Shown here piece after piece: positions 1,385 through 56,890 of a DNA stretch of 64,000 bases. The first letter of the stretch is position 1; each line of letters opens with the position of its first letter. The notes under the pieces were generated by a model that was not told where the DNA came from, ran no database searches, and was given only the letters and a program-made list of their open reading frames with translations. Source of the stretch: Candidatus Bathyarchaeota archaeon (GTDB lineage Archaea > Thermoproteota > Bathyarchaeia > 40CM-2-53-6 > RBG-13-38-9); assembly GCA_963807605.1 (NCBI GenBank), contig CAWECG010000001.1, forward strand, positions 535,410 to 599,409, written 5' to 3'. The translations under genes were made by a program, and so were the position numbers.

Positions 1385-1744
1385 ATCTCTTGCGCGCGCT
1401 ATGAGTAGAATTGGATTTACTGGTACTTGAAGCTTAGTAACACTTTTTCTAGCGCGCGCTAGATACTGATTGCGGATCAGGAAACGATGACGAGTGTATG
1501 TTTAAAACTCTGGCCTCTGGGGCGAGCACTACGGGACAGGGTCAACGTGGAACCCTGCGCGCGCGTGACCAGACTACTGAGATCATTATCATGAGTTTTG
1601 GTTTACCGTTGACTCTTCTTAGAAGAGTGTGTGCACCACACTGCTATACTTAGACAAGCGAATCTTTCGGACTCGTAGATTATCTTGAAGAGGATAATTC
1701 TCTCTTAATGAGCTCTTAAAAAATGGGCTCACATTCCACCTGCT

Positions 1745-2863
1745 CTAGGAAACCCAGACCTGTAGCACAAATTGGTACCAGATAAGTAAGCTCGCTAACA
1801 TAAAAAATGTGACTGCAACGGCCAAGGCTAACAGGTTTCTCATTCTAACAATCAACCAGACTGGAAAGATGAACGAGAAGAATCTTGGAAGAGAGTTATA
1901 GTTACCAAAGTACAGTAATGACAGATACACTGAGAGACTATAGATTGCAAGTTTACCGTCGATTCTAAAGACACAGAAGACTAGATACCCAGTGAAAATG
2001 ATGAACGGCAGTAGGAAAAAATCGAATTTTGGGAATGCCAAGACATTACTGCTAAGGAACGGTGTGATGTAGCGTTGGAACCATCCAAACTCGAAAGCTT
2101 GCTTTATCCAGAATGACTGTTGCGTTGCAAAGGCAAATGCATCTCCAGTTGTAAGGTACAGATAGTACATCCAGCCGAGAAGGGCAGTAATAGGCACTGA
2201 GATGATCGGAAACTGTTTGAATTTCCTCTTGAGAAGCAGATTAAGAGCTACGGGAATAACTATGGCTACTCCATACGGTCTTGTCAGGGTTGCGACGGTT
2301 GCTGCTAACATTGAAGAGATGAACCTGCCCCGAAGATGGAGATACCACGTGGCGAGTGTAGAAAAGAGGAAGAGGGACTCTGTATAAGAGACTGTTGTGA
2401 AGAGGAAGACGTAGGGGAAGGTTGCAGTCAACAATGTTGAAGCAGCCGCCTCAGCTCTTGACATGTAATGTTCAGCAACAAGCTGAAGCAAAGGAATAGA
2501 GGCCAAGCCGAGTACAAAAGAGATGATGAAGGCTGAGAGCCAAAAGTCCCCTGTCATCAGTTCAACCGCCTTGCAGAGGACTGGGTAGGCTGGGAAGAAG
2601 ACGTACATTGGAGGATAACTATACCACTCCTTGGCCAACTTGATATACCAGCCGGTGTCTTGTGCACTGAAAAGGTAGAGCCACAGTTGGGTTGGACCTA
2701 AAGTACCCCAAATACTCATCCACGGAGTTTTGAAGCTTCCCTGAATGCTGAGACGTTGATAGATAAAGAGTGAACTGAAAAGTTTCAGGAGACTAACGAT
2801 ACTAACAGGGAAGATAAGGCGCACCTTCCCCTCAAGCATCTTCGCTGCAGTATCTTGCAACAT
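1745..2863 (-). CDS. PIG-V-like (GPI mannosyltransferase 2 family) GT-C membrane glycosyltransferase
   Basis: QDTGWY..Y..FFPAYP, YTESLF and TRPYG motifs; multiple TM helices. Confidence 0.8.
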   Translation of the reverse strand: MLQDTAAKMLEGKVRLIFPVSIVSLLKLFSSLFIYQRLSIQGSFKTPWMSIWGTLGPTQLWLYLFSAQDTGWYIKLAKEWYSYPPMYVFFPAYPVLCKAVELMTGDFWLSAFIISFVLGLASIPLLQLVAEHYMSRAEAAASTLLTATFPYVFLFTTVSYTESLFLFSTLATWYLHLRGRFISSMLAATVATLTRPYGVAIVIPVALNLLLKRKFKQFPIISVPITALLGWMYYLYLTTGDAFAFATQQSFWIKQAFEFGWFQRYITPFLSSNVLAFPKFDFFLLPFIIFTGYLVFCVFRIDGKLAIYSLSVYLSLLYFGNYNSLPRFFSFIFPVWLIVRMRNLLALAVAVTFFMLASLLIWYQFVLQVWVS

Positions 2864-3154
2864 ACCAAGAGACTCCAGAAGTAACTCAGGTATTTCCTGA
2901 AGATAACAACTCCTTCTTTATGAGTTCCTTGATTGTGATGCTGAGGGTTCTTGTCGGAGCTTGCTCACGATCCTCGGAAGTGGCGTAGACTTCGAGCGCT
3001 AATAGGCGGGCCATGACCTTGAAGACTCGTTTGTAACCAAAATGCCGACCATAGCGGATCCTGCGCAGAAAGTAGAGGTCTAATCCTGAGAGCTGAAGGC
3101 CCCCTGCAGAACAAATATTCACTTAATGAAGTAAATCCGGACGCGCGCGCTTGT

Positions 3155-3357
3155 TTAGGCAATCCACTCCTTCGATACAAATTGGAACCATATAAGTAAG
3201 CTCATCAAAAGGAAAAAGGTAACCGCAACAACCAAAGCAAACAGGTTTCTCACTCTGGCGGCAAACCATACTGGAAAGATGAAGGAGAAGAATCGTGGAA
3301 GTGAACTGAGGTTACCAAATTACAGTAATAAGAGACACGGTGAAAGACTGTAGACTA
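3155..3357 (-). pseudogene. 3'-terminal fragment of a paralogue of the 1745-2863 mannosyltransferase
   Basis: Reads VYSLSPCLLLL*FGNLSSLPRFFSFIFPVWFAARVRNLFALVVAVTFFLLMSLLIWFQFVSKEWIA*, colinear with the C-terminus of 1745-2863; internal TAA; bounded by (GC)n runs at 3142 and 3358. Confidence 0.85.
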
Positions 3358-3559
3358 GCGCGCGCTAAGCAACCAAATATGAAATATCCAAGTGGAAACT
3401 TAATATGCCAAAAAAATCCAGCTTGAATAATTAAGCCGGTACCAACGTTTCTCTATGTATTCTTCTCGTTTTTTTGGGCTATTCGATCTTTTCAAAAATA
3501 ATAAGCCATCTCGGTCTACGTGAGAGCGCGTAAGGAATTGGCAGGAAAAAGGGGTCTCA

Positions 3560-6429: not shown

Positions 6430-6603
6430 GACTGATCTAGTTATTATTCTCAGTTTCCCGAATTAAGTCTGATCTCATTATCGCTAAATATCATTCAGAA
6501 CGCGGGACCAGATTTACGAGCTAAGCGCGCGCTTAGAAAAGGATCTTTCAAATCCTTTGCGTTTAAGGGATAATTCCTAATATTGAGAGAGTGCCTCTAG
6601 GGG

Positions 6604-9684: not shown

Positions 9685-11643
9685 TTGTTTAGAACTACCC
9701 CTATGAAAAGGCTGTACGCGGCTGCTCCATTAACATGTGAGGATAGTCTGCTCAAGTCTTTAGGACGGACTGGCGCTGTCCACCTCGTGGGCGACTACTC
9801 TATCAAAGGCTTCAGGAAGGTCGAGACTGTAGAGAAATGCGATAAGTACATCAAACTCCAGCAGAGGATCGCATCTATTCTTGCCTCTATTCCGCCTGAA
9901 AGTACTGAGAGTAAGGGTTTTCTTGAGAATCTCAAGGCAAGCTTCTCTGTAATTCCTTCCGATCATCCATCAGCAAAGGTTGAATTGAAAGAGATTGAAG
10001 ACTATGTTACAGACTTTGAGGCGAAACTGAATCGCAAAGTCGGCGTCCTAGAGAACCTTCGATCAGAAATCGGGAGGCTGAAGAATCTTGAAGAGAGGCT
10101 TCTCATCCTAGAAAAACACAATTTGAAGATAGACCAGCTAGGCAATTTCAGACACATATTCGTCAAGGCGGGCCTCATTCAGAGGGAGCTTGCCCCTAGG
10201 CTTGGAAGGTACGTAGAAGGCACCAGTGTGACATTCAGATCCTTCCCTGAGAACAGAAAGGAGGACTTTGTAGTCATAACTGGCTTGATGGACGACAAAT
10301 CCCACATAGAGAGTGCCTTACCGATCCTCAACTTCAGCGAACTAACCTTTCCGAGTGACGTAGACCCTGATCCCAAGGAGGCCTTACACGAAGTCTCAGC
10401 GGCAATCAGGCAGAAGACGAACGAGGCAGAAGAGATCGAGACGGCTTTAAGAGAAATGGGCAAGGAGTTTCGGGAAAGGGCAATAATCTATGAGCCAGTA
10501 GTCCAAGGAATCTTGAGACTTGAGGAGGCCAGATCGAATCTTAGTAGAACTGAAAAGGTGAGCTTGGTCCACGGCTGGATCCCTGCTAACAGAGCGAAGG
10601 AAGTCACAGACGCGGTTCTAGATGCAACATCCGGGCTTGCTTTCGTTAAGCTCGGCGACCCAGCTCCGGATGATAACCCACCCGTCAGTATGAATAACAA
10701 AGGTCCGCTGGGACCCTTTGAGCTACTTACCAAGCTTAGAGGGACACCGGATTATAGAGAGATCGACCCCACACCCATAATGGCTTTGCTCTTTACAGTC
10801 ATGTTCGGCCTAATGTTCGGGGATATCGGTAACGGACTTGTCTTAGCCATAATTGGCTTGATCTTCTTTAATCTCCAACGTGACTTCCTCAGAATACCTG
10901 CAAGGGCTGTAAGGAAGCTTGGAGGAATTCTGCTGGCATGCGGAATATCGTCGATGATCTTTGGAGTACTATTCGGTGAAGTTTTCTTATTTGGAGGATT
11001 GATCAATCCCATCCTTTTCAGCCCATTCGACAACCAAATGGCAATCATAGTTGTTGCGCTTGTCTTCGGCGTTATACAAATAGCCTTGGGACTGGTCTTG
11101 AAAATTGTAAATATGCTCAGGAAGGGAGAAGCCCACAGAGCCATATTCGCCGCAATTGTATTAGCTTACTATGTTGTAGGGGTTTTACTGGCAGTAGATT
11201 TTGTTTCAAATATGTCGTTTTCTGTCTTCACGGATAACCCAATCCTGACGGCGGCTGCAATTGGACTGCTGACATTGATCTTTGCTTTCCCAATGATTGA
11301 GGGCCTAATGGAGGGAGAGGTTAAGATTGTCGACAATTTGACGAGAGGGTTCGCGGAGTTCATTGAGACATTCATATCTACACTCACGAATTCGATCTCT
11401 TACGTCAGGCTGGCGGCCTTCGCGATAGCTCATGGCGCTCTGGCAATGTCAGCTGTTATTCTGGCGTCAACTGTTGGAGCACCTTTGAGCTATCTAATAA
11501 TGAACTTCCTCGTGATCATGATTGAGGGCCTAGCCATCCTGATACAGTCTATGAGGCTCACCTATTACGAGTTCTTTACAAAATTCTTTTCTGGAGGGGG
11601 AAAGCCATACCGGCCTTTCACTCTGCCTCCTATCTTTACGTAA
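9685..11643 (+). CDS. atpI: A/V-type ATP synthase subunit I (a)
   Basis: EIDPTP, FGLMFGDIG, SYVRLAAF (essential Arg), RLTYYEFFTKFF. Confidence 0.95.
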   Translation: MFRTTPMKRLYAAAPLTCEDSLLKSLGRTGAVHLVGDYSIKGFRKVETVEKCDKYIKLQQRIASILASIPPESTESKGFLENLKASFSVIPSDHPSAKVELKEIEDYVTDFEAKLNRKVGVLENLRSEIGRLKNLEERLLILEKHNLKIDQLGNFRHIFVKAGLIQRELAPRLGRYVEGTSVTFRSFPENRKEDFVVITGLMDDKSHIESALPILNFSELTFPSDVDPDPKEALHEVSAAIRQKTNEAEEIETALREMGKEFRERAIIYEPVVQGILRLEEARSNLSRTEKVSLVHGWIPANRAKEVTDAVLDATSGLAFVKLGDPAPDDNPPVSMNNKGPLGPFELLTKLRGTPDYREIDPTPIMALLFTVMFGLMFGDIGNGLVLAIIGLIFFNLQRDFLRIPARAVRKLGGILLACGISSMIFGVLFGEVFLFGGLINPILFSPFDNQMAIIVVALVFGVIQIALGLVLKIVNMLRKGEAHRAIFAAIVLAYYVVGVLLAVDFVSNMSFSVFTDNPILTAAAIGLLTLIFAFPMIEGLMEGEVKIVDNLTRGFAEFIETFISTLTNSISYVRLAAFAIAHGALAMSAVILASTVGAPLSYLIMNFLVIMIEGLAILIQSMRLTYYEFFTKFFSGGGKPYRPFTLPPIFT

Positions 11644-11653
11644 GCATTAAATA

Positions 11654-12052
11654 TTGAAGGGAAAGCTTCACAATTGTATTGGCTGGTTATGTGAATTGAC
11701 TAAACAAAGACGAGGCAGAACCATATCCAAGAAGAATTTGATCCTTCTTACCCCATTCATCATAGCACTATTGGTCCTAGCCACTCAAGTGGCATCAACA
11801 TCCGCGCAAGCTGAGCAGCAACCCTCTGGGGCTGCAGGATCCAAGTCATACGGTTTGGTCGCTGCAAGTCTGGCCGTCGGCTTATCTGGGCTGGGCGCTG
11901 GAGTGGCAATCTTTGGGTCAACCTCAGCCGGCATGGCAGCAGCGGTGGAGAGGCCTGAACTGACGACGTGGGTTTTAATCTTCGCAGGCTTGGGCGAAGG
12001 GCTTGCAATCTACGGCCTTGTTGTAGCTATCATGATTCTTGGAAAAATCTAA
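11654..12052 (+). CDS. atpK: A/V-type ATP synthase subunit K (c), single hairpin with N-terminal signal-like segment (start uncertain)
   Basis: GLSGLGAGVA...ERPE...GLGEGLAIYG with the ion-binding Glu. Confidence 0.92.
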   Translation: MKGKLHNCIGWLCELTKQRRGRTISKKNLILLTPFIIALLVLATQVASTSAQAEQQPSGAAGSKSYGLVAASLAVGLSGLGAGVAIFGSTSAGMAAAVERPELTTWVLIFAGLGEGLAIYGLVVAIMILGKI

Positions 12053-12093
12053 AGCTGCGCTTAGCAATCCTCTGTTTCTGTTGAGGTTCCTTT

Positions 12094-13125
12094 TCAGATC
12101 AAGAGTCTTCTCTGGAGTTCCTCCTCGGGAACCTTAAGATCTAGTGCCGTAGCTATTGTGACTAGGTTTCTTGCCTCCCTCTCACACATGAGGAGGTAGG
12201 CAACTACATATCCCAACTCTAAGAACAAGTTCTTCAGCGCAGATGAAGCGTCTTGGTAAAGTCTTTTGGAGATGACGTTCTCCAAGCTTATGGCTGGCTC
12301 CTTGGACCTCCTAATGATCTCGTCTGCAACATCGTGATATGTGGTTCCGGCCAAGATCTCCGGAGCATCTTCCAGCCCAGCTTGAGCCAGTTTTCTCAGA
12401 TCGAATTTGCTGAGTCTGTAATAGATTGGAATCATCATTTCCTCAATGAGTCTAGGTGCAAGCGCCCTCAGCTGTAATGTAAACACCAGTTGAAGATTCC
12501 AAAGGTCGACCTCTTCACCTACAAGCGTTTTGAGACCTTCTCTTTCAATCAGCCCCTCCATCTTCTCCCATAGCTTGGTGAAGTATATTCTGTGAAGAAG
12601 TGACTCAAGAACTATGGGGGACCCCACCCTTTTGTATGTGTCCAGTCCTTCTGCTACAGATGCGTAGTCTGTTTCTCGTAGAAGTGAAACTGCTTCTTCA
12701 ACGTTCTCAGCCTTGGCGAGGGCTGGGAAGTTGACGAACGTGTGTTCTCTGCTTAATGGTATTAGGTGGTATTCCTCGATCTTCTCTTGGGCGTGTTTGG
12801 CTCTAATAATCCTTTTGAGGTTTTCAACCTCAATTCTGGCTGCATATGCGTCGAGGAACTCTTTGATTCTTCCTCTTGTATCGTTTGTGAGGGTGAAGAA
12901 TCTCTGTACAAGGGCCTTTAGGAATACGTTCTCCAACTTCACTGAATCGATCTCTTCCCTTGAGAGTTTGCTGATCTCAGCTGCATAGTCACTCCTGAGC
13001 AGTTGATCAAACATCTCTGTGAGACTTCTTGACTTCGACATTGTCTTGATACTTTCAGAAGTGAGAAGGTGGGTTCTCCTGCCATGGGTTCTTGTGATCA
13101 GGTAGATAGTGGATGGTGTTCTCAC
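12094..13125 (-). CDS. atpC: A/V-type ATP synthase subunit C (AC39/d)
   Basis: 343 aa; ENLKRIIRAK, DLWNL and EREARNL repeats typical of AC39; operon context. Confidence 0.85.
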   Translation of the reverse strand: MRTPSTIYLITRTHGRRTHLLTSESIKTMSKSRSLTEMFDQLLRSDYAAEISKLSREEIDSVKLENVFLKALVQRFFTLTNDTRGRIKEFLDAYAARIEVENLKRIIRAKHAQEKIEEYHLIPLSREHTFVNFPALAKAENVEEAVSLLRETDYASVAEGLDTYKRVGSPIVLESLLHRIYFTKLWEKMEGLIEREGLKTLVGEEVDLWNLQLVFTLQLRALAPRLIEEMMIPIYYRLSKFDLRKLAQAGLEDAPEILAGTTYHDVADEIIRRSKEPAISLENVISKRLYQDASSALKNLFLELGYVVAYLLMCEREARNLVTIATALDLKVPEEELQRRLLI

Positions 13126-13736
13126 TGGTGCGACCTCTTGATCACTTGTTTTACACGTTTGGCTCTGAAGAATTCTTCAAGAGACTCCTCTTCCAGTCTG
13201 CCTTCCACGTATCTGATGAGTTCGAGCAGCCCAGGTATCAGGACCCTCTCAAGAGCATTCACCTTGCGATTCGTCATCATCAACTCGTAGGCTATGCTTT
13301 CAATGCGTGATTCAGCTTCTGCCAACTGGATCAGGTCTTTCATCAGGGCGTTGAGTTCTGAGGCTGCCTGGTAGGCGGATGGGCTTGATATGGAGTTTAT
13401 GTTGGCTTCCTTCTCGACTAGGACTTCCGGGACTATTACTCCCATTATGCTCCAAGGCCGGAGCTGCACTTCCATCTTACTTACTATTGTAGCTTGGGAG
13501 GCTAAGCTAGAATATCCTAGATTCAGGTACGCGGCTTTGAGGGTTTCATATGCTTGCATAAGTCTGCTGTCAAGCTTGTTCCGCTCAGCTACCCTGGAGA
13601 GGAGTTTGTTTGTTTCAGATGCAAGGTGGTCTCTCTTCATCTTTAGGAGTTCTTTGCCTTTCTTTGTGAATTCGATCTGCTCTCTGAGCCTGAGTAGAAT
13701 TCCTCTTGATACTGCCGCTCTTCCAGCAGCGCTCAC
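13122..13736 (-). CDS. atpD: A/V-type ATP synthase subunit D
   Basis: LLKMKRDHL, SIMGVIVP, TNRKVNALERVLIP. Confidence 0.93.
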   Translation of the reverse strand: MSAAGRAAVSRGILLRLREQIEFTKKGKELLKMKRDHLASETNKLLSRVAERNKLDSRLMQAYETLKAAYLNLGYSSLASQATIVSKMEVQLRPWSIMGVIVPEVLVEKEANINSISSPSAYQAASELNALMKDLIQLAEAESRIESIAYELMMTNRKVNALERVLIPGLLELIRYVEGRLEEESLEEFFRAKRVKQVIKRSHQ

Positions 13737-13746
13737 AATACAAGAC

Positions 13747-15171
13747 CTACTCTGGTTGGGTCGCGGCTTCTTTCTCTGGGTAGTATTTCTCTATGTATTC
13801 TTCGTGAATCCTAGTCAATGCCTTCTCAGGAAGTATGGAGAGCAACTTCCACGCAATGCTGAGTGTCGTCTCTATAGTTCTATTCTCGTACTCGCCTTGA
13901 CTGATGAAGTGTGTCTCGAAGCTGTCTGCGAACTTAAGGTAGAGTTTCTCATCCTCACTGAGGCCTACCTCGCCGACTATTCTTGATAAATCTCGGGCTT
14001 GCCGGCCTCTCGAGTATGCACCATAGAGTTGGTCAGCCACATCGCCATGGTCATCCCTTGTCTTGCCTTTTCCTATCCCTTTCCTCATCAATCTTGAAAG
14101 TGAAGGTAGAACATTTATCGGCGGGTATATTCCTCTCATGTAGAGTTCACGGTCAAGAAAAACCTGTCCTTCGGTTATGTATCCACTCAAGTCAGGTATC
14201 GGATGCTGGATATCTCCACCAGGCATGGTCAAAATTGGCATCTGTGTAAGGGATCCCGGCAGACCCTCGATGATTCCAGCCCTCTCATATATCGAGGCCA
14301 AGTCGCTGTATAGGTATCCTGGATAACCCTTCCTGCTTGGCACCTCCTCCCTTGCAGCGCTCAGCTCTCTAAGGACCTCAGCGTAGTTCGTCATGTCGCT
14401 GAGTATGACAAGAACATGCATACCAAGCCTGAATGCGATATACTCGGCTGCTGTGAGGGCTATACGTGGTGTGAAGAGTCTCTCGATGGCAGGGTCATCA
14501 GCCAAGTTCAGGATGATGACTGAACGTTCGAGGGCCCCCGAATCTCGAAACTCGCCCATGAAGTACTCGGCCTCATCATGTCTGAGCCCCATTGCTGAGA
14601 AGACGAGGGCAAACTCCTCCTTCTCGCCAAGGACGGTGGCTTGTCTTGAGATCTGTGCTATTACCCGGTTGTGCGGCATACCGCTCTCAGAGAATAGCGG
14701 GAGTTTCTGCCCTCTCACCAAGGACAACATTCCGTCTATGGCCGAAATTCCGGTCTGAATGAAATTGTTAGGGTAGATCCTCGCTCGGGGATTTATTGGA
14801 GAGCCGTTTATGTCCTCCATCTCACTGGAGATGATTGCTGGCGACCCGTCTACTGGCTCGAAGATGCCGTTAAAGATCCTTCCTAGAATCTCGTCTGAAA
14901 GCGGGATTTTGAAGGCTGAGCCTGAGAAGCTTATGACAGAGTCTGCCTGCAAACCCATCTCGCCCCCGAAGATTTGGATCACAGCCTTTCCCCTACCCAC
15001 CTCTAAGACCCGGCCCATCCTGTCGACTCCGTCTGGCGCCCGGACGGTAACTAGCTCGTCATAACCAACATTCTCAACATTATCTATCATCAAGAGTGAT
15101 CCTCTGACTTCCTGGAGTCCACGATAAACAAGGCCATGGGTTGACGACAACATAGATTCCATGATCCTCAC
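13747..15171 (-). CDS. atpB: A/V-type ATP synthase subunit B
   Basis: [43 protein letters not shown]. Confidence 0.97.
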
Positions 15172-15174
15172 CTC

Positions 15175-17007
15175 TTAGGAGACTCCATACTCCTGCCTGA
15201 GCTTGGTCATCTCACCCTCGATCTCTTCAGATAACCTCTGTAATCCTTGGATTCCGCTCTTGTCTTCTTTGGCTCTCTCGAGCTTGGACACCTGAGGCAG
15301 GGACTTGATCCTTTCTGCTGGAACACCCTTCTGGACCAATTGACTTGCTTGGTCATAGAAGTCCAGAAGCGTCTGAAGTAATGCCGCCTGTTTCTCCATC
15401 TCGCAGAAGGCGTCGACCTCGTGGTAAGCGAACTGTCTCAAGAAGGCTTCCTTTATCAGCTCAGACTCAAGCAGAATTAATCGTTGATCATCAGGAAGCG
15501 AGCGTTCACCCATTATCCTTGCGATCGACTCTATCTCAGAGGATTCACTCAAGATCTTCAGAGCTCTTCCTCTGAGTTGGCTAAAATCTGTTCGTAGCCT
15601 CTTCTTCCAGTAGTCGGCAATCTCTTCCGCATATTGACTGTAACTCTGAGCCCATGAACCCAGTAGCCGGTCGACATAGAGACTGTAGCTTTTCAGCCAG
15701 TGGATGGCGGGGAAGTGTCTGCTGTAGGCAAGGTCTCTATCCAAGGCCCAGAAGACTCCAGTGAACCTTAAAGTGTGTATGGTGACTGGTTCGTTGAAGT
15801 CTCCTCCGGGGGGCGAGACAGCGCCTATTATCGAGACTGATCCCTGACGGTCAGGTTTTCCTAGAGCTTTGATCCTTCCGGCCCGTTCATAGAACTCTGC
15901 CACTCTGTCTGGAAGGTATGCGGGGTAGCCGCCTTCGGCAGGCATCTCTTCTAGTCTGCCTGAGATCTCTCTGAGAGCCTCAGCCCACCTTGAGGTAGAG
16001 TCGGCCATCATCGCCACGTCATAACCTTGATCTCTATAGTATTCTCCCATCGTGACGCCGAGGTAAATGCTTGCCTCCCTTGCGGCTACAGGCATGTTGC
16101 TGGTGTTGGCTATCAGGATCGTTCTCTCCATGAGAGGCCTTTTGGTTCTTGGGTCTATCAGTTCTGGGAAGTCCGTCAGGACCTCACACATTTCATTGCC
16201 TCTTTCTCCGCAACCAACATAGACGATCACCTGAGCGGCGCACCATCTGGCGAGTTGGTGAAGCATCACGGTCTTTCCAGTGCCGAAACCGCCGGGTATG
16301 CTTGCTGTGCCCCCTTTCGGAAGCGGGAAGAAGGTGTCTATGACTCTTTGTCCAGTTACAAGCGGCTCGTCCAGTGGCAATCTTCCTTGAGGGGCGAAGG
16401 GTCTTGGTATCCTGATCGGCCATTCCTGCATCAGCTTCACATCTGTCTTCTTCCCATCCTTCTCAAGAGTAACCACAGGATCCTCTACTGTGTAATCGCC
16501 TTCCTTTATCAAAACAACCCTGCCGGAGACTTTTGGAGGAATCAGTATCTTATGGGTTAGAACAGGCATCTCCTGGACAGTCCCAATGATGTCGCCTGGA
16601 CCTGCAATCTCACCTTTGCTTATTGAGGGCTTAAAGTGCCACTTCTTGTCTCGTGGGAGAGTGTTGACTCTTACACCCCTGGTTATGAAGGGCCCTGTCT
16701 GGAGTCTAATCTTGTCGAGTGCTCTTCCCAGACCATCAAGTATATTGTTCAGCAGGCCTACGCCCAGCTCGGCAACTAGACGCTTGCCACTACCAATAAT
16801 CTCTTCGCCAGGTCTCAGACCTGTTGTGTTCTCGTATAATTGGGCGGTGAACTCTTCGACTCCAACTCTTATGACCTCGCCTATCAGGCCTTCCTTTCCA
16901 ACTTCAACTATTTCGCCCATCTCGATGTCTTTGATTCCGGAGCCTACCACTATAGATCCACTGATCCACCTTATCTTTCCAATTCTGGATTTCGTCAACT
17001 TGCTCAC
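15175..17007 (-). CDS. atpA: A/V-type ATP synthase subunit A (no intein)
   Basis: GGFGTGKT P-loop, [30 protein letters not shown]. Confidence 0.97.
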
Positions 17008-17008
17008 C

Positions 17009-17946: not shown

Positions 17947-17949
17947 ATT

Positions 17950-36617: not shown

Positions 36618-36772
36618 CGCGCGCGCTTTCCTGTGTAGTTTTCGATTGGGTACGTTTTCCTGTCGGTGCTATTGGCTTAGGTGTTTAGGCGCTAATTGCT
36701 TAAGCCCTTTCGAGTTGTGCGCCCTCAGCCGTGCTACTTGCGCTTGCTGAGTTAAACAACCAAACCTCTATA

Positions 36773-39201: not shown

Positions 39202-39413
39202 GGGCCTTTTCTACAAGGCTTCGGGTCATCTATTAAAATGTTTAACATTTTGATTTCAGATTTGGGCGCGAGGTCATGAAAAGGACTCCTATTGATAGTG
39301 CGTGGCGAGCTTCCTCCGCGCGCGCGTAAGATAACGATACAATTCGCCATCTGCACACGGAGTCGAAGCAAATTTAGTAGGCCCTTTATAGGCGAACTTG
39401 CCAACTCAAAGTC

Positions 39414-44353: not shown

Positions 44354-44716
44354 ATGGCTTTTGATGCTGGTTCAGTAATAGAACTGATCGTCAGCATAAT
44401 CATCGTAGCTCTGGTCTTCTGGATCGTCGGTCGCATACTGGTTGGAAAACAGAAAGCAAACATCGGACATGCCTTTTGGATAGCGATCCTGGGAATAATC
44501 ATCAATTATATCTTACAGATGTTTATTCCTGGCATCATCGGCTTCATAGTAACGTGCATAGTCTGGCTGTGGCTGATAAAGCACTTCTTCGAGACAGGCT
44601 GGCTCCATGCAATAATCATAGCTGTTGCAGCGATAATTGTCCTAGTAATCGTAGAGGCGATCCTTGGGGCTCTAGGCTTCGGAATGCTGGCAGGATATCT
44701 CCACGCGCGCGTGTAA
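44354..44716 (+). CDS. Four-TM hypothetical membrane protein
   Basis: Hydrophobic helices; IKHFFETGW. Confidence 0.7.
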   Translation: MAFDAGSVIELIVSIIIVALVFWIVGRILVGKQKANIGHAFWIAILGIIINYILQMFIPGIIGFIVTCIVWLWLIKHFFETGWLHAIIIAVAAIIVLVIVEAILGALGFGMLAGYLHARV

Positions 44717-45155: not shown

Positions 45156-45367
45156 GAATTATTCACCTCACTAATCATTCTGTACTAAATAGTTAGCCGA
45201 CGATTTCCGATATTTCTTTTTCAATCTCGCCTTCAACACGCACGTTGGCAAGAAAACCAAGGCGAGATGGGTTGTCTCTCTGGGTGGAGAATCTGCTGCG
45301 GACGTTGACACCTATTAACTGCAGATGCATAACCTTTTCTAATTGTCCGGCTCCTGAAAGGCGCGCG

Positions 45368-47967
45368 CTAGGTTATCATGCTTTCAGGTATAGTAAAGGT
45401 GAAAGTTGCGCCTTTCCCTTCGCCTTCTGTTTCCGCCCATATTTTGCCTCCGTGAGCTTCAATCAATGCTTTTGAAACGCTCAGACCCAGGCCTGTACCC
45501 TTTATGTACGAGGGCTTTTGGATGGCAGCGAAGGGCTCGAAGACTTCTAGCTGAGATCCTCTTTCTTCATCCCAATGCCTTTGTCTTGGATTGAAAGCTC
45601 TATAACGTTGTCTCTCTTCTCCGCTCTGAGGGTGATCTGCCCGTTCTCACCGGCAAACTTCGAGGCGTTGCTGAGGAGATTCATAAATACTTGAACGAGC
45701 CTTGTGCGATCTCCACGGACAGGTAACGGGCTCTCCGTGACATCAAGAAAAAGTGTCTGCTTCTTCTTTTCGATAAAGGGATCTATCTCCTTGGCGCATG
45801 TATTGATGATGTCTTTCAAGTCGAGAGCGGTCAAGGTCAACTGGAACTTTCCTGAGGTGAGGCGTCGATAATCAAGCAGTTCATCGGTCAAGTCTAGAAG
45901 CCTGTCACTCTGGTCCTTCACTACTATCATCCCATGTTCAACTTTCTCAGGTAAAGTTCCCAGGTTTCCTGAGAGGATGTAGTCCACGTACCCTTTGATC
46001 GAGACCAGAGGCGTTCGAAGCTCATGAGTGACGGCGGCGATGAATTGGTCCTTCAGCGTTTCCATTCTCTTGCGTTCTGTGATATCTGTTGCATAGAGAT
46101 TGACATATCCAGCATCCATTGTTGGTGAGACGATGAATGAGTAGACTTGTTCACCGACCCCAAGTTCCAGGTTTTTGGTTATCCGGTTTGTGAGAGCTTC
46201 AGTGGCCAAGTCTTGCCAAAACTTTGGAGCCTTGCTGCCGACGGCACATCTCCAATGTCGGAGTATTGCCGAACCCGCGTCGTTTGAGTAGAGAATCGCC
46301 CCTTCAGAACTCAGGCGTAACACGGGGTTTGGATTCTCAGCAGGAAATCGAGCAAGACTCCTAATCTCTTCCTCCATCCTTCTCCGTTCAGTTATGTCAC
46401 GGGCTATGCCTTGAACGGCTTGTTGACCTTTGTAGGTGAAGGGGGTTGCTTCAGTCTCCACATCGACGTATGACCCGTCTAGGCGTCTGTACTTCACTTC
46501 CAGAGGCGGCGCTGGAACTCCTTCACGTGCCCTTTTGATGTGTTCTCTGACAGTTTCACGATAATGAGGGTGAACTATATCCAATATCTGTTTTCCAATG
46601 AGCTGATCAGTGTTTTTCGCTCCTAGAAGTCTTGCCCCCGAATTATTCACGAAGACAAGTTTGCCCCCTCTATGAGCAAAGATCATATCGGGAGCGGACT
46701 CCACAAGCTGACGGTAACGTTCCTCGCTCTCACTTAGTTCTCTGGTTTTCGCCTCAACCAGCTCTCTCAAATGTCTGCTGTAACGCCTAAGCTCCTCTTC
46801 CATCCGCTTACGCTCTGTGATGTCTCTTGCGGCGGCAAATAGGCCCTGAATCTTTCCAGACCCGTCTTTGTATACAGTTGCATGGTAGAGTACGTCAGTG
46901 ACTTTGCCTGATTGGTGACGTATCGTCAGAGGATAGTCCCTTACGTGCCTTTCAGAGAATGCCTTCTGATAGCCTGCCCTTGCTTTCTCAGGCTCTGTAA
47001 AGTACTCGGAGAAGTCACTGCCTATCAACTGGTCACGAGGAACACCTGTCACCAGCTCGGTAGCCTCATTAACGTCGGTTATCTTACCCTCAGGGCTTAT
47101 CGTCACTAAGGGGTCAAGGCTGGCTTCGATCAGCCTTCGAGTGTACAGTGAAGTTGCACGCAGTTTCTCCTCTATTTTTTTACGCTCAGTGATGTCTGTG
47201 GAAATGATTCCGAGTCCATCTCCGGCCTTGAAAGCCTTCAGACTGAAATACCTATTTCCGAATTTCGGATGGGAGTGCAGCTCGTCAATGGAGAAGGGTT
47301 TTCCTGTCCTGATGACTTCCAGATACTTAGCATACCGGCCCGTCTTCATCGCGTCGGGGGATATTTCCGACAGATTTCTCCCCAACAATTCTCGTCGACT
47401 TAGACCTGTAAACTTCAGTAAAGCGTTATTTGCTTCAATATAATTCAGTCTCGAATCATAAAGGGCATATAGTTCTGGCGCAGAGGCGGTAAAACTTCGG
47501 AGCCTATCAACGTACTCTGTCAGATTTCTCTCTGCCTGTGTCCTCTCAGCAACTCTGGCAAGCCTCTTGGCAATAGTATTGATTAGGTTTCCTTCTTCTT
47601 TTAGGAAAGGCCCTTCGTCACTGGCGGGTTTCTTTTCCAGATAGTAGACTTCAATGATGCCTACTTTTCTTCCATCCGACTTTATCTCGGCTGATTGCCT
47701 CCATCTAGTCTTCTTGAAGTTGGCTGTTTGAAACGTTTGACTCTTGTAGATTATTCTGGTACATGTAGCATCTGGGTATTGCCAAGCACGTGGAATAACA
47801 GAGGTAGCAGATTTTAGAATGCCATTAAGATCTCCACAGTGTCGTTCTATCAGTCTCTCAATATCGTACACGCATCTAAGTTCTTTGACTCGCTCTCGTA
47901 GTCTCTGCTGAGCCCGTGCGGACGAACTAGATGATCCGCTAGAAACTGAGCGACTCCTCTGTCTCAT
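45368..47967 (-). pseudogene. Multi-PAS sensor histidine kinase, frameshifted in the HATPase domain near 45545
   Basis: PAS/PAC repeats (DITERK), THELRTP, NLLSNA, DKGIG; G2 box GTGLGL and GKGATF continue after two extra A bases to TAG at 45368. Confidence 0.9.
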
Positions 47968-48669: not shown

Positions 48670-48971
48670 TCCTGTGCCTCCGCACGCATGTTGAAAATAG
48701 ATTGCTATATTAAGACTAGCGCTGAATTTCGGAAGCTGACTCCCAAGAGCTCCGTCTAATCTGTCTTGAAAAGTGCGCGCTGATTCGTAAAATATCGTAT
48801 TGATATCAATATACAATTTGAAGAAAATGTATATAGTGCCACTTGTCGTGTTTGTTCTGACACTTGAGTCAAATATTTGAGGTGTCGAAAGAATAGTCAG
48901 ATGACTTTAATGTTTTGAAAATGGATTCTGGGACAAGATTTGAGAACGAATTGGTTCGCTGGTATTTGAGG

Positions 48972-49859
48972 ATGGTAGCAGATAGTGTCTTGGATCTGAT
49001 AGGGAACACGCCCTTGGTAAGAATAAGAAGATTGACTGAAGAAAATCATGCAACCATCTTAGCCAAACTTGAAATGTTCAACCCATCCGGTTCGGTAAAA
49101 GACAGGTTGGTTAAGTACATAGTCGAAGATGCAGAGAGAGCTGGAATCCTGAAAAGAGGCAGTGTCATAGTTGAAGCTACCTCCGGCAATACTGGAATCG
49201 CACTATCTATGATTGGTTGCATCAAAGGCTACAAAGTCAAGGTTATTTTGCCAAGATCTGCGAGCGAGGAAAGAAAGAGGATGATTCAGTCTTTTGGTGC
49301 TGAACTGATACTTACAGGCGATGAGTATGAAGCTATAAGATTGGCTGAAAAGTTGTCCCGGGAAAATGACTAGTACTTATTGAATCAGTTCGGAAACAAC
49401 CTCAATGTGGAGGCCCACTACCAGACCACAGGAAGAGAGCTCCTAGAGCAGAGTGGTGGGAACCTAGATGCTCTTGTCGCCGGCATAGGAACAGGAGGCA
49501 CAATTATGGGAGTTGGCAGGAGATTGAAAGAGCATAGCCCCGAAATAAAGATCATAGGTTGTGAACCAGACCTATATAGCAAGATTGAAGGCATGCTGAA
49601 TTTCACGGATTCCAACTACAAGCCACCAATACTAGACCTTGAATTAGTTGATGAACTAGTTAGGGTGAAAGATGAAGATGCGTTACGGACGACCAGAGAG
49701 ATCGCAAGAAAAGAAGGCCTATTTGTAGGAATCAGTTCAGGAGCTGCCTTGCATGTTGCATTGCAAAAAGCGAAGGATCTCGGTAGGGGAAAGACTATCG
49801 CACTTATTTTTGCTGATGGAGGAGGACGATACTTGAGTACGCAGGCATTCGCAAAATGA
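48972..49859 (+). pseudogene. cysK: Cysteine synthase family PLP enzyme with in-frame TAG at 49371-49373
   Basis: IGNTPLV, SGSVKDR, ATSGNTG, then in the same frame NQFGN, GIGTGGT, GISSGA, RYLST. Confidence 0.88.
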
Positions 49860-49906: not shown

Positions 49907-50056
49907 TCAGAAACGCGCGCGCGTGATCGCAAAAACCATTACGGGAACAACATTCCACGTCGCTCCGAACTTCTGTATCAGCAGAATCGCCGTCACCACT
50001 GAAATAGATACGGTAACGGCGGCCACGATAAGCAATCTAGTAACGGGACTTATCAT
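49907..50056 (-). pseudogene. Short membrane ORF/fragment ending at a (GC)n run
   Basis: MISPVTRLLIVAAVTVSISVVTAILLIQKFGATWNVVPVMVFAITRARF*. Confidence 0.4.
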
Positions 50057-50819: not shown

Positions 50820-50969
50820 TTCGGCTTTGACTATGTTAAGATCATGGGCGATCAGGTTTGAAGATGACTACTGATGTATCAGAGCTACTTAGCCATATCT
50901 CGACGATCTAATGTAACTTAGCGATGCCGGAAGGAAGTTAGAACTCTGATGCCCTTCCTTTAGCGCGCG

Positions 50970-51476
50970 CTAATAGTCTCCAGTAGTGACGGGATAAACA
51001 AACGCAGATGTGGAATAATTTTGTTTTCTTGATGGGTCTCTGCAGAGATCTATGGCTTCCGAGATAATGTTAGGTAGGCTCTCTGGATTTCCTCTACCTA
51101 TTCCGGGACACACAGAGTTCGCATACGGATTCAAGTAGACGTAGTACTCCTCGCTTCCATAACAGAATCGCGCTTCCCTTGGGCTGAACGATTTTGGTTC
51201 TCTTGAAATTACGAGAGGCCACACTTTGCATGGAAGTGGTTTGAGGTTGAGCTGTTGCAGACCACATAATCCATACTCATTAAGGAAGATGCACCTTGAG
51301 CCATTCTTTCTTAGGTATATTCTGCCATAACTGTCTGATTCTACGGCCTCTGGCGCGAACTCAAGGATTCTCACATACTCGTATGTCCTGAGATACACTG
51401 TAAAGCCACGTTTGCAGCAGTTGCCACAACCCAGGCAACTCCAAGACTTCACCTTGCTCCAAGGCTTGAAGCCCAT
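50970..51476 (-). CDS. YkgJ/CxxCxxCC cysteine-cluster protein
   Basis: CLGCGNCC, CIFL, C..KPLPCKVWP. Confidence 0.85.
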   Translation of the reverse strand: MGFKPWSKVKSWSCLGCGNCCKRGFTVYLRTYEYVRILEFAPEAVESDSYGRIYLRKNGSRCIFLNEYGLCGLQQLNLKPLPCKVWPLVISREPKSFSPREARFCYGSEEYYVYLNPYANSVCPGIGRGNPESLPNIISEAIDLCRDPSRKQNYSTSAFVYPVTTGDY

Positions 51477-52082: not shown

Positions 52083-53187
52083 TGGGTTGTCCCGATATTA
52101 GCGTTTTCATGTTAGGTTTGTCCAGTGTGTTATGCTTCTGGTTTTGGTGGGTTGTTTGGTGTTGTGTGAGGCTTCTATGGTGTAGAGTAGGCATAGTATG
52201 CAGTAGCTGGTGTGGATGGTGATGTTTTCTAAGCCTCTTGTTTTGTGATTGTTGAGGGTGAGGTGTTCTTTGAGTGATGCGAAGACGAGCTCTATGGTTG
52301 AGCGTTTCTTGTAGATGCGTTTGAGGTTTTCTGGGCCGTGTGTTTTGAAGTCGCTGGTTACTCTGAGGATGTTTTGTCTTTCAGGGTTCTGGTTGGCTGG
52401 GTAGGGTATCGCGGTCTTGATTTTGTGTCTTTTAGCGGTCTCTCTGAGTCTGTTGCTGGAGTATTGACTGTCAGCGGTTAGCTGTCGGATTCTGATTGCT
52501 GTGGTTTTAACTGTCATTTTGAGGAGTGGTATGCTGAGTTTCTTCTCGTTAGTGTTTGCTGGTGAGATGAGGAAGGCTAGGGGTGTCCCTGTGTCTGCAT
52601 CGACTGTGAGGTGTAGTTTGTAACCTAGGCTGTATGTGCGGTAGGCTCTTCCTACACGGGCTTCAGGGTCGCTGAAGCCTGTTCTATTGTTTATGTTGCG
52701 TCTGCTGTAGGCTTTGATGAAGGTAGCGTCCATAGCGACTATCCTGGGTTTTGCTATGTGTTTCTTCAGCAACTTCTTGACCTGTTTGTTTACTATGCGT
52801 CTTAGTCTTCTTGCGCCTAGCCGCTGGTTGAATCTTGAGAGTACCGTCCTACCGTACGCTGGCTCCTCATATCTTATGCCGCATATGTCACGTAGCCTCT
52901 CATCATGACATAAGTGGCGTTCAAGATCACGCAGACTGCTCATTCTCAGGTAGCGTCTGGCGAGGTGTGCCTTGAAGAGTCCTAAGGGGTTTCGTGGAGG
53001 TTTACCTGGACCGTCTTGATGATAGCAGCTAACAATGAGGCGTTCAACAAACGATAAATCCAGATTACTCAGCAGTGACTCCAGAGTCTCGTACCCTTCT
53101 ATCTGGAATCGCCTCCAAGTAGGAGGGTGTGGGGCTCAAACCATATGGATCTTTCCGTGTCAACTCAAAGAATATCGGGACAAGCCC
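52083..53187 (-). mobile_element. Insertion sequence (IS1182/IS5-like DDE)
   Basis: TIR GG(G/C)TTGTCCCGATATT at 52084-52099 and 53171-53186; flanks are themselves inverted repeats ending in GCGCGC. Confidence 0.88.
52107..53135 (-). CDS. DDE transposase (start region apparently frameshifted)
   Basis: GPGKPP N-terminal motif, MDATFI, GYKLH, TADSQY, YKKRSTIELVF; frame stays open upstream of the annotated M at 52943 to a TGA near 53137. Confidence 0.85.
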   Translation of the reverse strand, partial: APHPPTWRRFQIEGYETLESLLSNLDLSFVERLIVSCYHQDGPGKPPRNPLGLFKAHLARRYLRMSSLRDLERHLCHDERLRDICGIRYEEPAYGRTVLSRFNQRLGARRLRRIVNKQVKKLLKKHIAKPRIVAMDATFIKAYSRRNINNRTGFSDPEARVGRAYRTYSLGYKLHLTVDADTGTPLAFLISPANTNEKKLSIPLLKMTVKTTAIRIRQLTADSQYSSNRLRETAKRHKIKTAIPYPANQNPERQNILRVTSDFKTHGPENLKRIYKKRSTIELVFASLKEHLTLNNHKTRGLENITIHTSYCILCLLYTIEASHNTKQPTKTRSITHWTNLT

Positions 53188-53406
53188 GCGCGCTATCCGA
53201 ATCTCTAAGCCTTCTAGGTAGAATCTCTATTGCGGCCTGTTCCGGTTCCTCAATAGGAATTACAACTATCTTAAGGCTCAAATCTTGAGTCCGACCAGTA
53301 AGTAGAAAGACATAATGTCCAACAAATGTATTAACGCGCGCGCTATAGATCTCCTTGATAAAATAATCTGGTTCATCATTTGAAAGCTGCCTTTTGTGCA
53401 CGTTAA

Positions 53407-54147
53407 CTATAGGAGCTTCGCCAGCTTTGCTGCGTCCGTGGGAGGGTGGCCTGAATAGTATTTGCTGAAGTAGACGAATACTTCTGCATGGCTGTCTCGG
53501 TACTTCTTTATTTTCTCTGCCCATTTTTTGATGTCGTCTGTTCGGTCAACCTCAACCTTGCCTAGAGTCCCCTTTACTTTAGCTCTATCACCTTCCAACC
53601 TTACGTAGACGAAATTGGCCGTCAATTCTTCAATACTGGGCATGAAGGGGCTGCTTACCAAGGTCAAAGCGATCTCATTTTTCCGGAGAAGAGAGAAGAG
53701 TTCATCCCCCAGCAATTTCTGGTTTCTCACTTCTACGGCAAAACGACACTCTCTGGGTAGCGTGGACAGGAAATCCTTCAACATTTGAATATGCTCTTGC
53801 TTGAATCTGGAGGGGAATTGAAGAAGCAATGGACCAAGTTTCTCTTGTAACTCAGAGAGTCTTCCAACGAACCTTTCCAAGAGCTCCTCGCAGTCTTTCA
53901 ACATCTTGATGTGAGTTATTATTCTGGGAAACTTGGCGGCGAATAGAAAACCCGTCGGAGTCTGATCCTTCCATTCGATGACTGTCTCACGTCGGGGGAT
54001 CCTGTAGAATGTGCTATCCAACTCAACAGTATCGAAATGCTTTGAGTATTCTGTTAGGAACTCTCTTGACTTGAGACCTTTAGGATATAAGTTGCCGAGC
54101 CAGAAGCTGTAGCTCCAACCCATTGTGCCGATGTGAACCGTGCTCAT
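53407..54147 (-). CDS. DUF72 (UPF0759) protein
   Basis: GTMGWSY, VELDSTFY, LLQFP, AVEVR, YVRL. Confidence 0.92.
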   Translation of the reverse strand: MSTVHIGTMGWSYSFWLGNLYPKGLKSREFLTEYSKHFDTVELDSTFYRIPRRETVIEWKDQTPTGFLFAAKFPRIITHIKMLKDCEELLERFVGRLSELQEKLGPLLLQFPSRFKQEHIQMLKDFLSTLPRECRFAVEVRNQKLLGDELFSLLRKNEIALTLVSSPFMPSIEELTANFVYVRLEGDRAKVKGTLGKVEVDRTDDIKKWAEKIKKYRDSHAEVFVYFSKYYSGHPPTDAAKLAKLL

Positions 54148-54208
54148 TCTACGCGCTGCTCCCCTGACTGGGAGCTCCGGGATCCCAGCGCATGGTCTGT
54201 TTCTGAGG

Positions 54209-55160
54209 TCATCCCCGTTTCACTTGGTCGAGAGTGCATTCGTGTGGAGTCTTATCAGCTTTCAGCCCCCGGAATCTTGGCATCCGTAACTTGTCGTCTT
54301 TGGTGACTGTCTGATAGGCGACTTCGCATACAAGCTTCGGCTTTAGCCAGACAACTTCCTGAGGGACTTCAACCTCATGAAGAGTCTCCTTCCGGACCTC
54401 CAGTCCTTTGAAGATATTTTTCAGAAGGTCCGTGTCGCCCTGGGAGAAGCCTGTCCCCACTTTGCCCACGTAGACCGGTCTGTCGTCATCGTATAATCCC
54501 AGGATCAGCGCTCCGAAGGTCTCCTCTCTAATGCCTTCCCCAGTGGTATATCCGAAGATCACACAGTCGCAGGATGTCACCTTTTTTATCTTCAGCCAAT
54601 TGCCACTGCGTCTTCCGGGCTCGTAGGGACTGTCTCTCCTCTTCGCCATTATCCCCTCCAGAGCCCTTCGAACAGATGCCCTGTAGTATTTTTTCCCTTC
54701 TTCCTCTATGAAGAGTGAAGCTAGGACGTGTCTGCCCTCCTTGAGGGAATCCTTCAGGATCATCTTCCTGTCAATTAAGGGAAGGTTGATGAGAGTCTTC
54801 CGGTCCTTCTCCAGTATGTCGAAGACAACATATGTTGCAGGATATTTGCGCGACATGTATTCGATATCGGTTGGCGAAGTAGTCTTACCCCTTTCCAGGA
54901 GGGTCTGGAAGTCTGGTCGCCCACGCCTCAGTGACGACTATTTCGCCGTCGAGGACAGCTCCCCTTGTCAGATTCTTCAGTTCTTCAAGTTCTGGAAAAT
55001 TGATCTTTAGCTCCTTATCATTCCTGCTCTTTATGTTCAGCCTTCGATCGATGTAGCTGATAGCTCTGAACCCATCCCACTTGATCTCGAAGATCCAGCC
55101 CTTCGAGTTGAAGGGCGCGTCTGCGGTCTGGGCGAGCATCGGCTTATAGTGCCGGTTCAT
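54209..55160 (-). pseudogene. ligD: NHEJ ATP-dependent DNA ligase (LigD ligase domain), +1 frameshift near 54933
   Basis: EIKWDG (motif I), LDGEIV, then GRPDFQ, VFDIL, EGIMAK, WLKIK, GKVGTG, LRMPRF in the next frame. Confidence 0.9.
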
Positions 55161-55957
55161 TTCTTCTTGATCTGTTTGAGAGTCTCTTGGAGAGCTACCA
55201 TAAGCTCCTTAGCCTCTTCCTTTACGGGCTTCTCCTCGACGACGATGGCCTCTCCCTTCATCTTTTTCTGGACGAGTGACTCGACTTTCTCTCTGTAGCG
55301 GTCTCTGTACAGTGTTATATCGAATTCCCCTGAGAGATCGGCGATAATCTTCTTAGTGAGCTCCAGCTCCTCCTTATTCGGCTCCTTGAGCCCCCTGAGC
55401 TCTTTGTTCTCAGCTGGATCAGCAACCTCGTATTGATAACGAAGAGCCGTCAGAACCAAGGCGTTCTTGTAGGGGTGGACTATAACCGGGTACTCCTTTG
55501 TCCTGAGAGTAACCCTTCCGATTCCGGCTTTGCCCATTGCCTGTAAGGCAGTCAGAAGGAGGCTGTAGGCTTCCTCACTCTTGTCCGGTATCAGAAGGTA
55601 CGACCTCTCGAAGTATATCGGATTAACCGAGAGGTAATCGAAGAACTTGTCTATGCGGATCTTCTGGGTTGATTCTGGCTTGGCCGCCTCAAGTTCCTTC
55701 TGCTTGAAGATGATAAACTTGTTCTTGCTTATCGGGTATCCTTTCTCAACATCCTCCCAAGGAACGATCTTATTCTCTTTGATGCAGACTTTTTCGTATC
55801 TTAGTGGCTGACCGTCCTTCTTATGCAGAAATCTGAAATGGAGACTGTGATCGAATATCATGGGGTAGAGCTTGATCGGAACATTAACTAGGCCTATTGT
55901 GATACTTCCGCTCCACATGGGTCTCTTAGAGACTTGGCCTCTTATTTTCTTGGCCAT
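55157..55957 (-). CDS. ku: Prokaryotic Ku DNA end-binding protein
   Basis: RPMWSGSITIGLVNVPIKLY, KGY, YFERSYLL, YRDRY, LMVALQETL. Confidence 0.95.
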   Translation of the reverse strand: MAKKIRGQVSKRPMWSGSITIGLVNVPIKLYPMIFDHSLHFRFLHKKDGQPLRYEKVCIKENKIVPWEDVEKGYPISKNKFIIFKQKELEAAKPESTQKIRIDKFFDYLSVNPIYFERSYLLIPDKSEEAYSLLLTALQAMGKAGIGRVTLRTKEYPVIVHPYKNALVLTALRYQYEVADPAENKELRGLKEPNKEELELTKKIIADLSGEFDITLYRDRYREKVESLVQKKMKGEAIVVEEKPVKEEAKELMVALQETLKQIKKK

Positions 55958-55958
55958 T

Positions 55959-56822
55959 TCAACTCACTTTTAGTTTCTGTTTCTCTTCGAACAACCCTTC
56001 CCAAGGGTCCTTCCGAATCTTGACTACACTGAATATATTGAACGCGTCGGGGTCTAATACTTTCTTAATATTCTTCCATTCAAAGGGCGTTGAGACAGTG
56101 GCCTTGGGAGTGGCTCTCAAGCTGTACGCGCATATCATGGTTCTACCGTGAGAGTTCTGCAGATAATCTATGAAGACGGTTCCTGGCTCTCTTGATCTGG
56201 AGAACTCTGAGACGATGATCTCCGATTCCTTCTCGAGACTCTTGCCAATTTGATGCGCAAATTCTCTGACCTGTCGGAAGGAGTATCCTTTGGTTAGAGG
56301 GATGACAACGTGTAGTCCCTTCTTCCCCGAGGTTTTGATGTAGGATCTCAGGCCTAATGTGTCCAGCTCCTCCTTCAGCAGAAGAGCTACATCAACGGCG
56401 TCGGAAAATTTGGCCGGTGGCTCAGGATCGATATCGATTAAGACTAGGTCGGGGCTCTCGAAGGAATCCATTCCGGAGAGAGTGACATGGATCTCCAAGG
56501 CAGCCAGGTTAGCCAGCCAGATGAGCGTATCGACGTCGTTGCAGATTATGTAGTGCAGGTCTCGCTGCGCTGTCTCGGAATATCTCTTGAAGGTTTTCAC
56601 CCAAGACGGGGTTCCAACAGGAACATCTTTCTCATAGAATCCCTCCTTATCCACTCCATCAGGAAATCTTGTCAGAACCGCTGGTCGCATAGCTAACAGG
56701 TCCAGCATCCTCGGGGCTATTCTGATATAATACTCGATAACCTGTCGCTTTGTGACTCTCAGCTCTGGATAGAGCAACTTGTCCAGGTTGGTGAACTCAA
56801 CCTTAGTGAGCCTTTTGGACAA
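55959..56822 (-). CDS. NHEJ primase-polymerase (LigD Pol domain, stand-alone)
   Basis: TNLDKLLYP, RFPDG, DIDP, KTSGKKGLHV, VFIDYLQN, AYSLRA, VSTP. Confidence 0.95.
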   Translation of the reverse strand: MSKRLTKVEFTNLDKLLYPELRVTKRQVIEYYIRIAPRMLDLLAMRPAVLTRFPDGVDKEGFYEKDVPVGTPSWVKTFKRYSETAQRDLHYIICNDVDTLIWLANLAALEIHVTLSGMDSFESPDLVLIDIDPEPPAKFSDAVDVALLLKEELDTLGLRSYIKTSGKKGLHVVIPLTKGYSFRQVREFAHQIGKSLEKESEIIVSEFSRSREPGTVFIDYLQNSHGRTMICAYSLRATPKATVSTPFEWKNIKKVLDPDAFNIFSVVKIRKDPWEGLFEEKQKLKVS

Positions 56823-56890
56823 ATCGATCCGAGACCCAAGTCAAAGACTTGCTCTACAATAGCAGCGCGCGCTTCAGGATTTGATCGGTT

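Follow-up and report, generated by a model that had tools for sequence, protein, structure and literature searches.

The window studied here is a stretch of 64,000 nucleotides from the genome of an uncultured soil archaeon, Candidatus Bathyarchaeota (GenBank assembly GCA_963807605.1, contig CAWECG010000001.1, positions 535,410 to 599,409), and the features in question are short runs of alternating C and G scattered between its genes. The source genome, of 2.65 Mb, has an archaeal 16S gene and close homologs annotated as Candidatus Bathyarchaeia; it is referred to as G000, with C1 and C3 as its contigs, and the GC content of the window is 47.5%. The sequences of relatives are labelled L024, L025, L028, L029, and L112 (the JGI relatives at approximately 92% identity), and X1 denotes the contigs of a sister strain. 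Genes were called with a simple hexamer model made for this analysis. An earlier description made from the letters alone, hereafter the sequence-only reading, had listed at least 21 runs of 8–12 bp, and this count is exact: between positions 1392 and 56872 there are 21 runs of at least 8 bp, namely twelve of 8 bp, six of 9 bp, two of 10 bp, and one of 12 bp. Windows simulated with Markov models of order 1–3 contained on average 0.4–1.5 runs and at most 6. The runs are intergenic or at gene ends, as had been stated; 19 lie outside the called genes, two touch 3' ends (44704 and 50963), and on the gene calls ppsA and the ATPase genes have none inside them. The runs had also been described as often forming an exact palindrome. 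This was not borne out, and the 12-mer TA(GC)4TA is found at only four of the 21 sites (1452, 3358, 33620, and 50963). The sole strong consensus of the flanks is an A before and a T after the run (85%), with a weak tendency towards TA on both sides. The reported 16-bp palindrome at 6521–6536 is present; its two arms, however, derive from parental sites 2.9 kb apart. An assembly artefact can be ruled out, because the 6525 run is also found in an independent short-read contig at 99.96% identity and the JGI relatives carry runs of their own.

The relation between these runs and rearrangements can be seen in comparisons with relatives. Alignments to the relatives of about 92% identity stop exactly at runs, as the sequence-only reading had anticipated. 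At 6525–6532, a (GC)4 filler replaces a 2,910-bp segment of three genes that is retained in L024, in which both ends (6995 and 9906) are run-free. The deletion is assigned to the lineage of the window, since the genomes G001 and G003 retain the first of the three lost genes beside the same neighbour. In strain X1, 804 bp are missing from a 3-hydroxyacyl-CoA dehydrogenase gene (segment 31050–31855 of the window), and the joint consists of a new 12-bp CG run beside ATA and TT, both corresponding ends in the window being run-free. Because the gene is intact in the window, this loss is polarised as a deletion, as is that at 6525. At 50963–50970, a (GC)4 filler is found where L028 has a segment of 5,981 bp, the ends of which are again run-free, with the direction of the change not polarised. 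At least eight two-sided joints have both parental ends free of runs, with 1 bp to 6 kb replaced. They include window 6525 and 50963, C1 353532, C3 74808, and C3 253659, as well as L024 12936, L029 10992, L029 9772, and the X1 joint. At C1 353532 and C3 74808, a mere 6 nt were exchanged for a 10- or 9-bp run, in one case in frame within a gene, and at C3 796158–796309 a 152-bp piece has a run at each end and a run-free source. At such joints, the run is new and absent from both parental ends, whatever the length lost.

Other runs of the window mark one side of a difference. The 9-bp run at 23070–23078 is located at a breakpoint beyond which L025 and L029 continue without a run and with approximately 0.5–0.9 kb of extra DNA, and the spacer around the (GC)4 run at 26984–26991 is replaced in L029. 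The 9-bp run at 36618–36626 lies at the end of a duplicated segment of 820 bp, the second copy of which has no run, and it also forms the right end of a strain joint. The (CG)4 run at 37589–37596, common to the C3 paralog, is the end of a 97-bp strain joint, and the 9-bp run at 31962–31970 was reused in X1 as the left boundary of a deletion of 860 bp that removed most of a methyltransferase gene. The (CG)4 run at 44704–44711 lies 5 nt before the stop codon of the open reading frame (ORF) at 44354–44716, and the alignment with its L112 homolog stops at residue 116 of 120. In the spacer with the (GC)4 run at 45361–45368, L112 has a 6-bp run. The remaining sites are (GC)4 runs at 1392–1399 (intergenic), 1452–1459, 3358–3365, and 33620–33627, the last three with TA on both flanks; 9-bp runs at 1557–1565 and 3142–3150; a (CG)4 run at 27487–27494; (CG)5 runs at 39317–39326 and 49914–49923; and a (GC)6 run at 34313–34324, the longest of the window.

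The same relation holds across G000. Of the 123 run arms with a homolog elsewhere, 73 lose homology at a distance of 0–2 bp from the run. The partner, either a paralog or the sister strain, is run-free in 68 of 87 close arms and shares no base of the run in 53; no base lies between parental homology and run in 37, and a single A does so in 13 of 68. Slippage from a seed was rejected for most sites, as the partner shares 0–1 run bases in 63 of 68; a single site in another genome (G073, described below) has a CGCG seed. When the ends of paralog alignments were examined, 28 of 192 had a run within 5 bp, compared with 2.2 in a shifted null (maximum of 7 in 1000), and in 27 of these 28 the run was present in only one copy. 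Since the partner lacks the run and both parental ends of the two-sided joints are run-free, most runs are best regarded as newly written filler and not as pre-existing sites. Among the options offered by the sequence-only reading, scars fit best, and recombination sites that existed beforehand are not supported.

We propose, with a probability of roughly 0.65, that the runs are filler left by the error-prone rejoining of broken DNA in some lineages of Bathyarchaeia, an undescribed variant of end joining. Untemplated synthesis would extend each broken 3' end, in many cases with a single A that is followed by alternating G and C. Such tails would be self-complementary, so any two ends could pair, presumably over approximately 8 bp, before fill-in and ligation. 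Resection might also expose an older run to which a tail could anneal, and deletions with an end at such a run would be accounted for in this way. The runs would afterwards decay as neutral scars, and joints within needed genes or promoters would be purged, so that the surviving runs come to resemble marks of gene boundaries. With regard to the enzyme, the leading guess, though a doubtful one, is that the replicative primase PriSL behaves in a lineage-specific manner. A tentative suggestion is that some Bathyarchaeia possess a specialised end-joining activity whose A(GC)n tails would serve as sticky ends for any pair of DNA ends and would allow unrelated DNA to be patched in without homology, as perhaps in the 152-bp piece on C3. 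No description of such filler was found in the literature, most subscription papers lying beyond the search.

G000 has 320 runs of at least 8 bp, approximately a 15-fold excess, with a length peak at 8 and lengths of up to 15 bp. Two octamers occur 596 and 428 times against 35 and 30 expected at order 3, so the enrichment persists after Markov correction at 14–17 times the expectation. In prokaryotes, suppression of GC8 patterns is the rule (PMC4060949), which makes the excess in G000 unusual. Variants with one mismatch are enriched 2–5 times, transitions foremost, as expected of decaying scars. Perfect palindromes of at least 16 bp are found at just 4 of the 320 sites, and no flank consensus extends past 1–2 bases. 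Coding DNA is avoided: the density is 1.5 runs per 100 kb in coding sequences and approximately 50 per 100 kb in intergenic DNA, some 30 times higher, with 44 in divergent, 47 in tandem, and 68 in convergent spacers. Spacers between two conserved genes have about half the usual density (2.5 vs. 5.4 runs per 10 kb). Breaks also fall within genes, for which reason the apparent preference for gene boundaries is best read as the survival of harmless joints and is probably the outcome of selection. In view of the same breaks, the gene-aware capture system that had been suggested from the letters alone is not supported.

The trait is distributed unevenly in the class. When 151 class genomes were scored against a reversed-word control, 12 were clearly motif-rich: five of family f1, all five of f28, one of f26, and one of f17. 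Kin are not independent, so these represent a few switches (g5 within f1, g63 within f17, f26, and f28) and not twelve. G005, which belongs to the family of G000 and has 45% GC, has no run of 7 bp or longer in 1.05 Mb. In G073, a genome of another order with 39.8% GC, there are 278 runs over 1.2 Mb, and these too have the A flank. A contig scan with ppsA, a metagenome scan, and a search for luciferase homologs yielded no close relatives. Because sister genera of the same GC content differ in whether they have the trait, a comparative hunt for the enzyme is possible, and every genome of the motif-bearing lineages can be used to map joints. A fixed, countable scar offers a way of testing how double-strand breaks are rejoined in archaea that lack Ku, a question not yet settled. 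An enzyme that writes self-complementary tails, if real, would represent a new polymerase behaviour and possibly a tool for joining DNA without homology.

Several observations weigh against the filler proposal. Among ten clean indels of at least 50 bp not caused by insertion sequences (ISs), a new run was found in only five; of the others, one had a 5-bp run and two had none, and in two the sole run lay where the long allele ends. Among the shorter indels of the same screen, 0 of 10 had a new run. A 153-bp strain joint at 34642 uses microhomology, so joints of this type coexist with run joints, and three X1 strain joints end at existing runs. GC-run filler is therefore one rejoining route among several. 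Most one-sided cases are unpolarised, and the 804-bp joint is known from one contig with a depth of 4.6. The parity of the runs can be compared with that expected from ends started independently. In G073, the GC-even, odd, and CG-even classes number 174/90/14 against 173/93/12 expected, in favour of the proposal; in G000, the counts of 161/82/77 for runs of at least 8 bp fit poorly when 7-mers are left out, and setting the limit at 8 bp introduces a bias into the test. Finally, every candidate writer tested fails to track the motif-rich genomes. PriS is present in all genomes, so its presence is uninformative, and in a comparison of five sequences with one motif-free genome, PriS of G005 has 7 private residues, no more than other rows.

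The joints that end at existing runs point to a different explanation, in which recognition sites or fragile, Z-DNA-prone sites that were already present anchor rearrangements, survive them, and pile up in variable DNA. A run shared with the partner in 19 of 87 close arms and the placement of IS copies in runs described below agree with it. However, such sites would keep runs and generate none, and they cannot account for the joints with two run-free parents, least of all for the replacements of 6 nt, which anchoring cannot make. The lack of an excess in divergent spacers, the absence of gyrase in the five genomes tested, the lack of enrichment of (TA)n in G000, and the suppression of GC8 patterns cited above also argue against it, and we consider this explanation unlikely. 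Breakage at Z-DNA, which had been offered in the sequence-only reading, likewise fails for runs that neither parent had, although it may contribute to the reuse of existing runs. A search for Z-alpha domains gave no match, but the controls gave none either. An excess of (CA)n, considered as a second Z-DNA signal, was discarded because most of it is due to a distinct repeat family, TAGCTGGTGAG, whose tips read CACACAC (75 sites in G000, among them window ~32915 and 40633).

The poor parity fit in G000 keeps a related explanation in play, namely that a primase or polymerase synthesises a self-complementary piece of approximately A(GC)4T de novo and that this piece is ligated whole between broken ends. 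Ready-made palindromic oligonucleotides would account for the sharp length peak at 8, for the A and T flanks (the A being often non-parental), and for the GC-even and CG-even classes in G000 that exceed the expectation for independent tails. They would not account for odd-length runs that retain the A (65%) and T (78%) flanks, for lengths of up to 15 bp, or for the class ratios of G073, which fit two independent tails. Capture of whole oligonucleotides is thus judged quite improbable.

Transposon footprints, also among the options of the sequence-only reading, were considered in the form of IS1182/IS5-like elements that target GCGC and create runs on insertion or excision. One such DDE element, IS-A, is located in the window at 52083–53187 (minus strand) with GCGCGC on both sides, its match lying below every family cut-off. 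All seven IS-A copies in G000 are flanked by GCGCGC on both sides, and most of the approximately ten copies or fragments of a related DDE element, IS-B, are found in runs. Excision could have produced the rare GC runs of 10 and 12 bp. Nevertheless, 17 copies stand against 320 runs, and the transposase family, searched with one protein query that extinct or distant elements could escape, was found in 4 of 12 motif-rich genomes, in 0 of 5 f28 genomes, among them G073 with its single contig, and in 22 of 35 motif-poor f22 genomes. As the family is missing from most motif-rich genomes, it is very unlikely to be the source of the runs, and the two elements appear from their sequence context to be users of runs as putative targets. 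A TnpB (IS605-type) gene lies at 61638–62834 in an element missing from L028; G000 contains several such families with 11–17 copies. The intergenic position and palindromic form of the runs might point to promoter elements, terminators, or sites bound by a regulatory or structural protein, but this is scarcely credible, since the runs have no fixed distance to starts or stops, are scarce within 30 bp of starts, occur in every spacer orientation, are not conserved among the relatives of about 92% identity, and are rarer between conserved genes.

Comparison with described systems likens the joints to those made by filler-adding end joining and sets them apart from HIP1, integrons, or nonhomologous end joining (NHEJ) by Ku/LigD. 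In Saccharolobus islandicus, PriSL adds bases without a template and anneals ends on 2–4 GC pairs (PMC12019639). This microhomology end joining (PADT) is archaeal and Ku-independent, and it shares with the proposed origin of the runs untemplated 3' addition, annealing on GC pairs, and G/C-biased insertions, but its reported insertions are mostly 1–2 bp, with no 8-bp alternating filler or genome-wide scar (PMC12019639). By analogy, it would be the nearest described route to GC-run filler.

The fillers and N-nucleotides added by TdT, Pol mu/lambda, Pol theta, or the LigD polymerase domain are near-random or copied from nearby DNA. They resemble the runs in being non-parental bases at deletion or insertion joints that occur beside microhomology joints, and differ in that the GC-run filler has a fixed self-complementary sequence and that neither Ku/LigD nor PolX co-occurs with it. 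The attC sites of integrons also punctuate accessory DNA, as the GC runs do, and have long imperfect inverted arms, R boxes, and an orientation. The runs have none of these features and no cassette structure, their breaks fall inside genes, and their parents are run-free. No recombinase was found among the window proteins scanned, and a genome-wide search for IntI was not run.

HIP1 (GCGATCGC) of cyanobacteria is conserved and over-represented within ORFs and is linked to methylases (PMC5861425, PMC4390886). It is likewise a hyper-abundant, GC-rich, palindromic octamer of patchy distribution among lineages; the GC runs, in contrast, keep away from ORFs, are of variable length, lack conservation between relatives, and have no co-occurring C5 methylase. 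The integron-like or HIP1-like sites envisaged in the sequence-only reading are not supported. The co-occurring methyltransferase that it had suggested looking for was not found, as PF00145 is present in only 2 of 14 motif-rich genomes, one a fragment, with N4/N6 methylases not searched. In G000, GGCC, CCWGG, GTAC, and GGAC/GTCC are under-represented, which suggests that restriction-modification systems exerted pressure in the past; there is no avoidance of GCGC or CGCG. A DRT-type enzyme is reported to perform protein-templated synthesis of a dinucleotide repeat de novo (PMC13174585), and is similar to that extent. The differences are that no reverse transcriptase was found in four motif-rich genomes and that the GC-run product is short and embedded at chromosomal joints.

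The search for the writer covered several further candidates. The window contains an NHEJ operon at 53407–56822 (minus strand) with a LigD polymerase domain (55959–56822), Ku (55157–55957), a ligase, and DUF72. Its ATP-dependent ligase is split by a frameshift (54885–55160 and 54209–54856), which may be an assembly error. This cargo is missing at the same place in L028 and is bounded by the 9-bp run at 53335–53343 on its downstream edge and the (GC)4 run at 56865–56872 on its upstream edge, where homology to run-free L028 starts exactly. Ku/LigD was rejected as the writer, because Ku is present in 36 of 151 class genomes, of which 2 belong to the 12 motif-rich and 34 are motif-poor. PolX was likewise rejected (4 of 12 motif-rich genomes, two of these hits being short fragments, vs. 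34 of 35 motif-poor f22 genomes). DinB and XPB-Bax1 do not track the trait, and a Pol-beta-like nucleotidyltransferase is also present in the motif-free G005. The counts of PolB are uninformative on the trait. A fusion of an orphan N-terminal domain with an SSB-like OB fold was found in 11 of 12 motif-rich genomes but also in 46 of 139 others. Genes shared by G000 and G073 and missing from G005 were obtained by subtraction, which covered 61% of G073 and approximately 65% of G005 and left 119 candidates judged by eye, from which XPB-Bax1, the nucleotidyltransferase, and the fusion were followed up; the writer gene may lie outside the subtracted DNA.

Some of these genes are of interest in their own right. 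The orphan/SSB fusion, of approximately 200 aa, is present in 57 of 151 genomes, with five copies in G000 and examples at L159:11251–11841 and L200:3233–3799. It adjoins LigD in G070, G125, and G151 and a TBP-like gene in G000, and it is possibly a DNA-damage module. A PolX-PHP gene of G000 (C1:345194–346909) is 67% identical to one of G073 (L192:6551–8263), in which it is split by a stop codon. It is not present in the other f1 genomes searched, and a recent transfer is possible. G000 has just two family-B polymerase hits (910 and 793 aa), and a high-scoring class of approximately 790 aa that is common in Bathyarchaeia was not seen in G000 or G073. The 16S gene at L002:1501–3001 has no exact match to the common 21F and 515F primer patterns tested. 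Elsewhere in the window, the amino-acid permease at 35200–36267 is shorter than its homologs, and the gene of a PLP-dependent (pyridoxal phosphate) enzyme at 48915–49859 is split in two. As is also the case in relatives, subunits I and K of the A/V-ATPase operon at 9685–18276 are encoded on the opposite strand, and a second ATPase A/B pair is located on C3 at approximately 474–477 kb.

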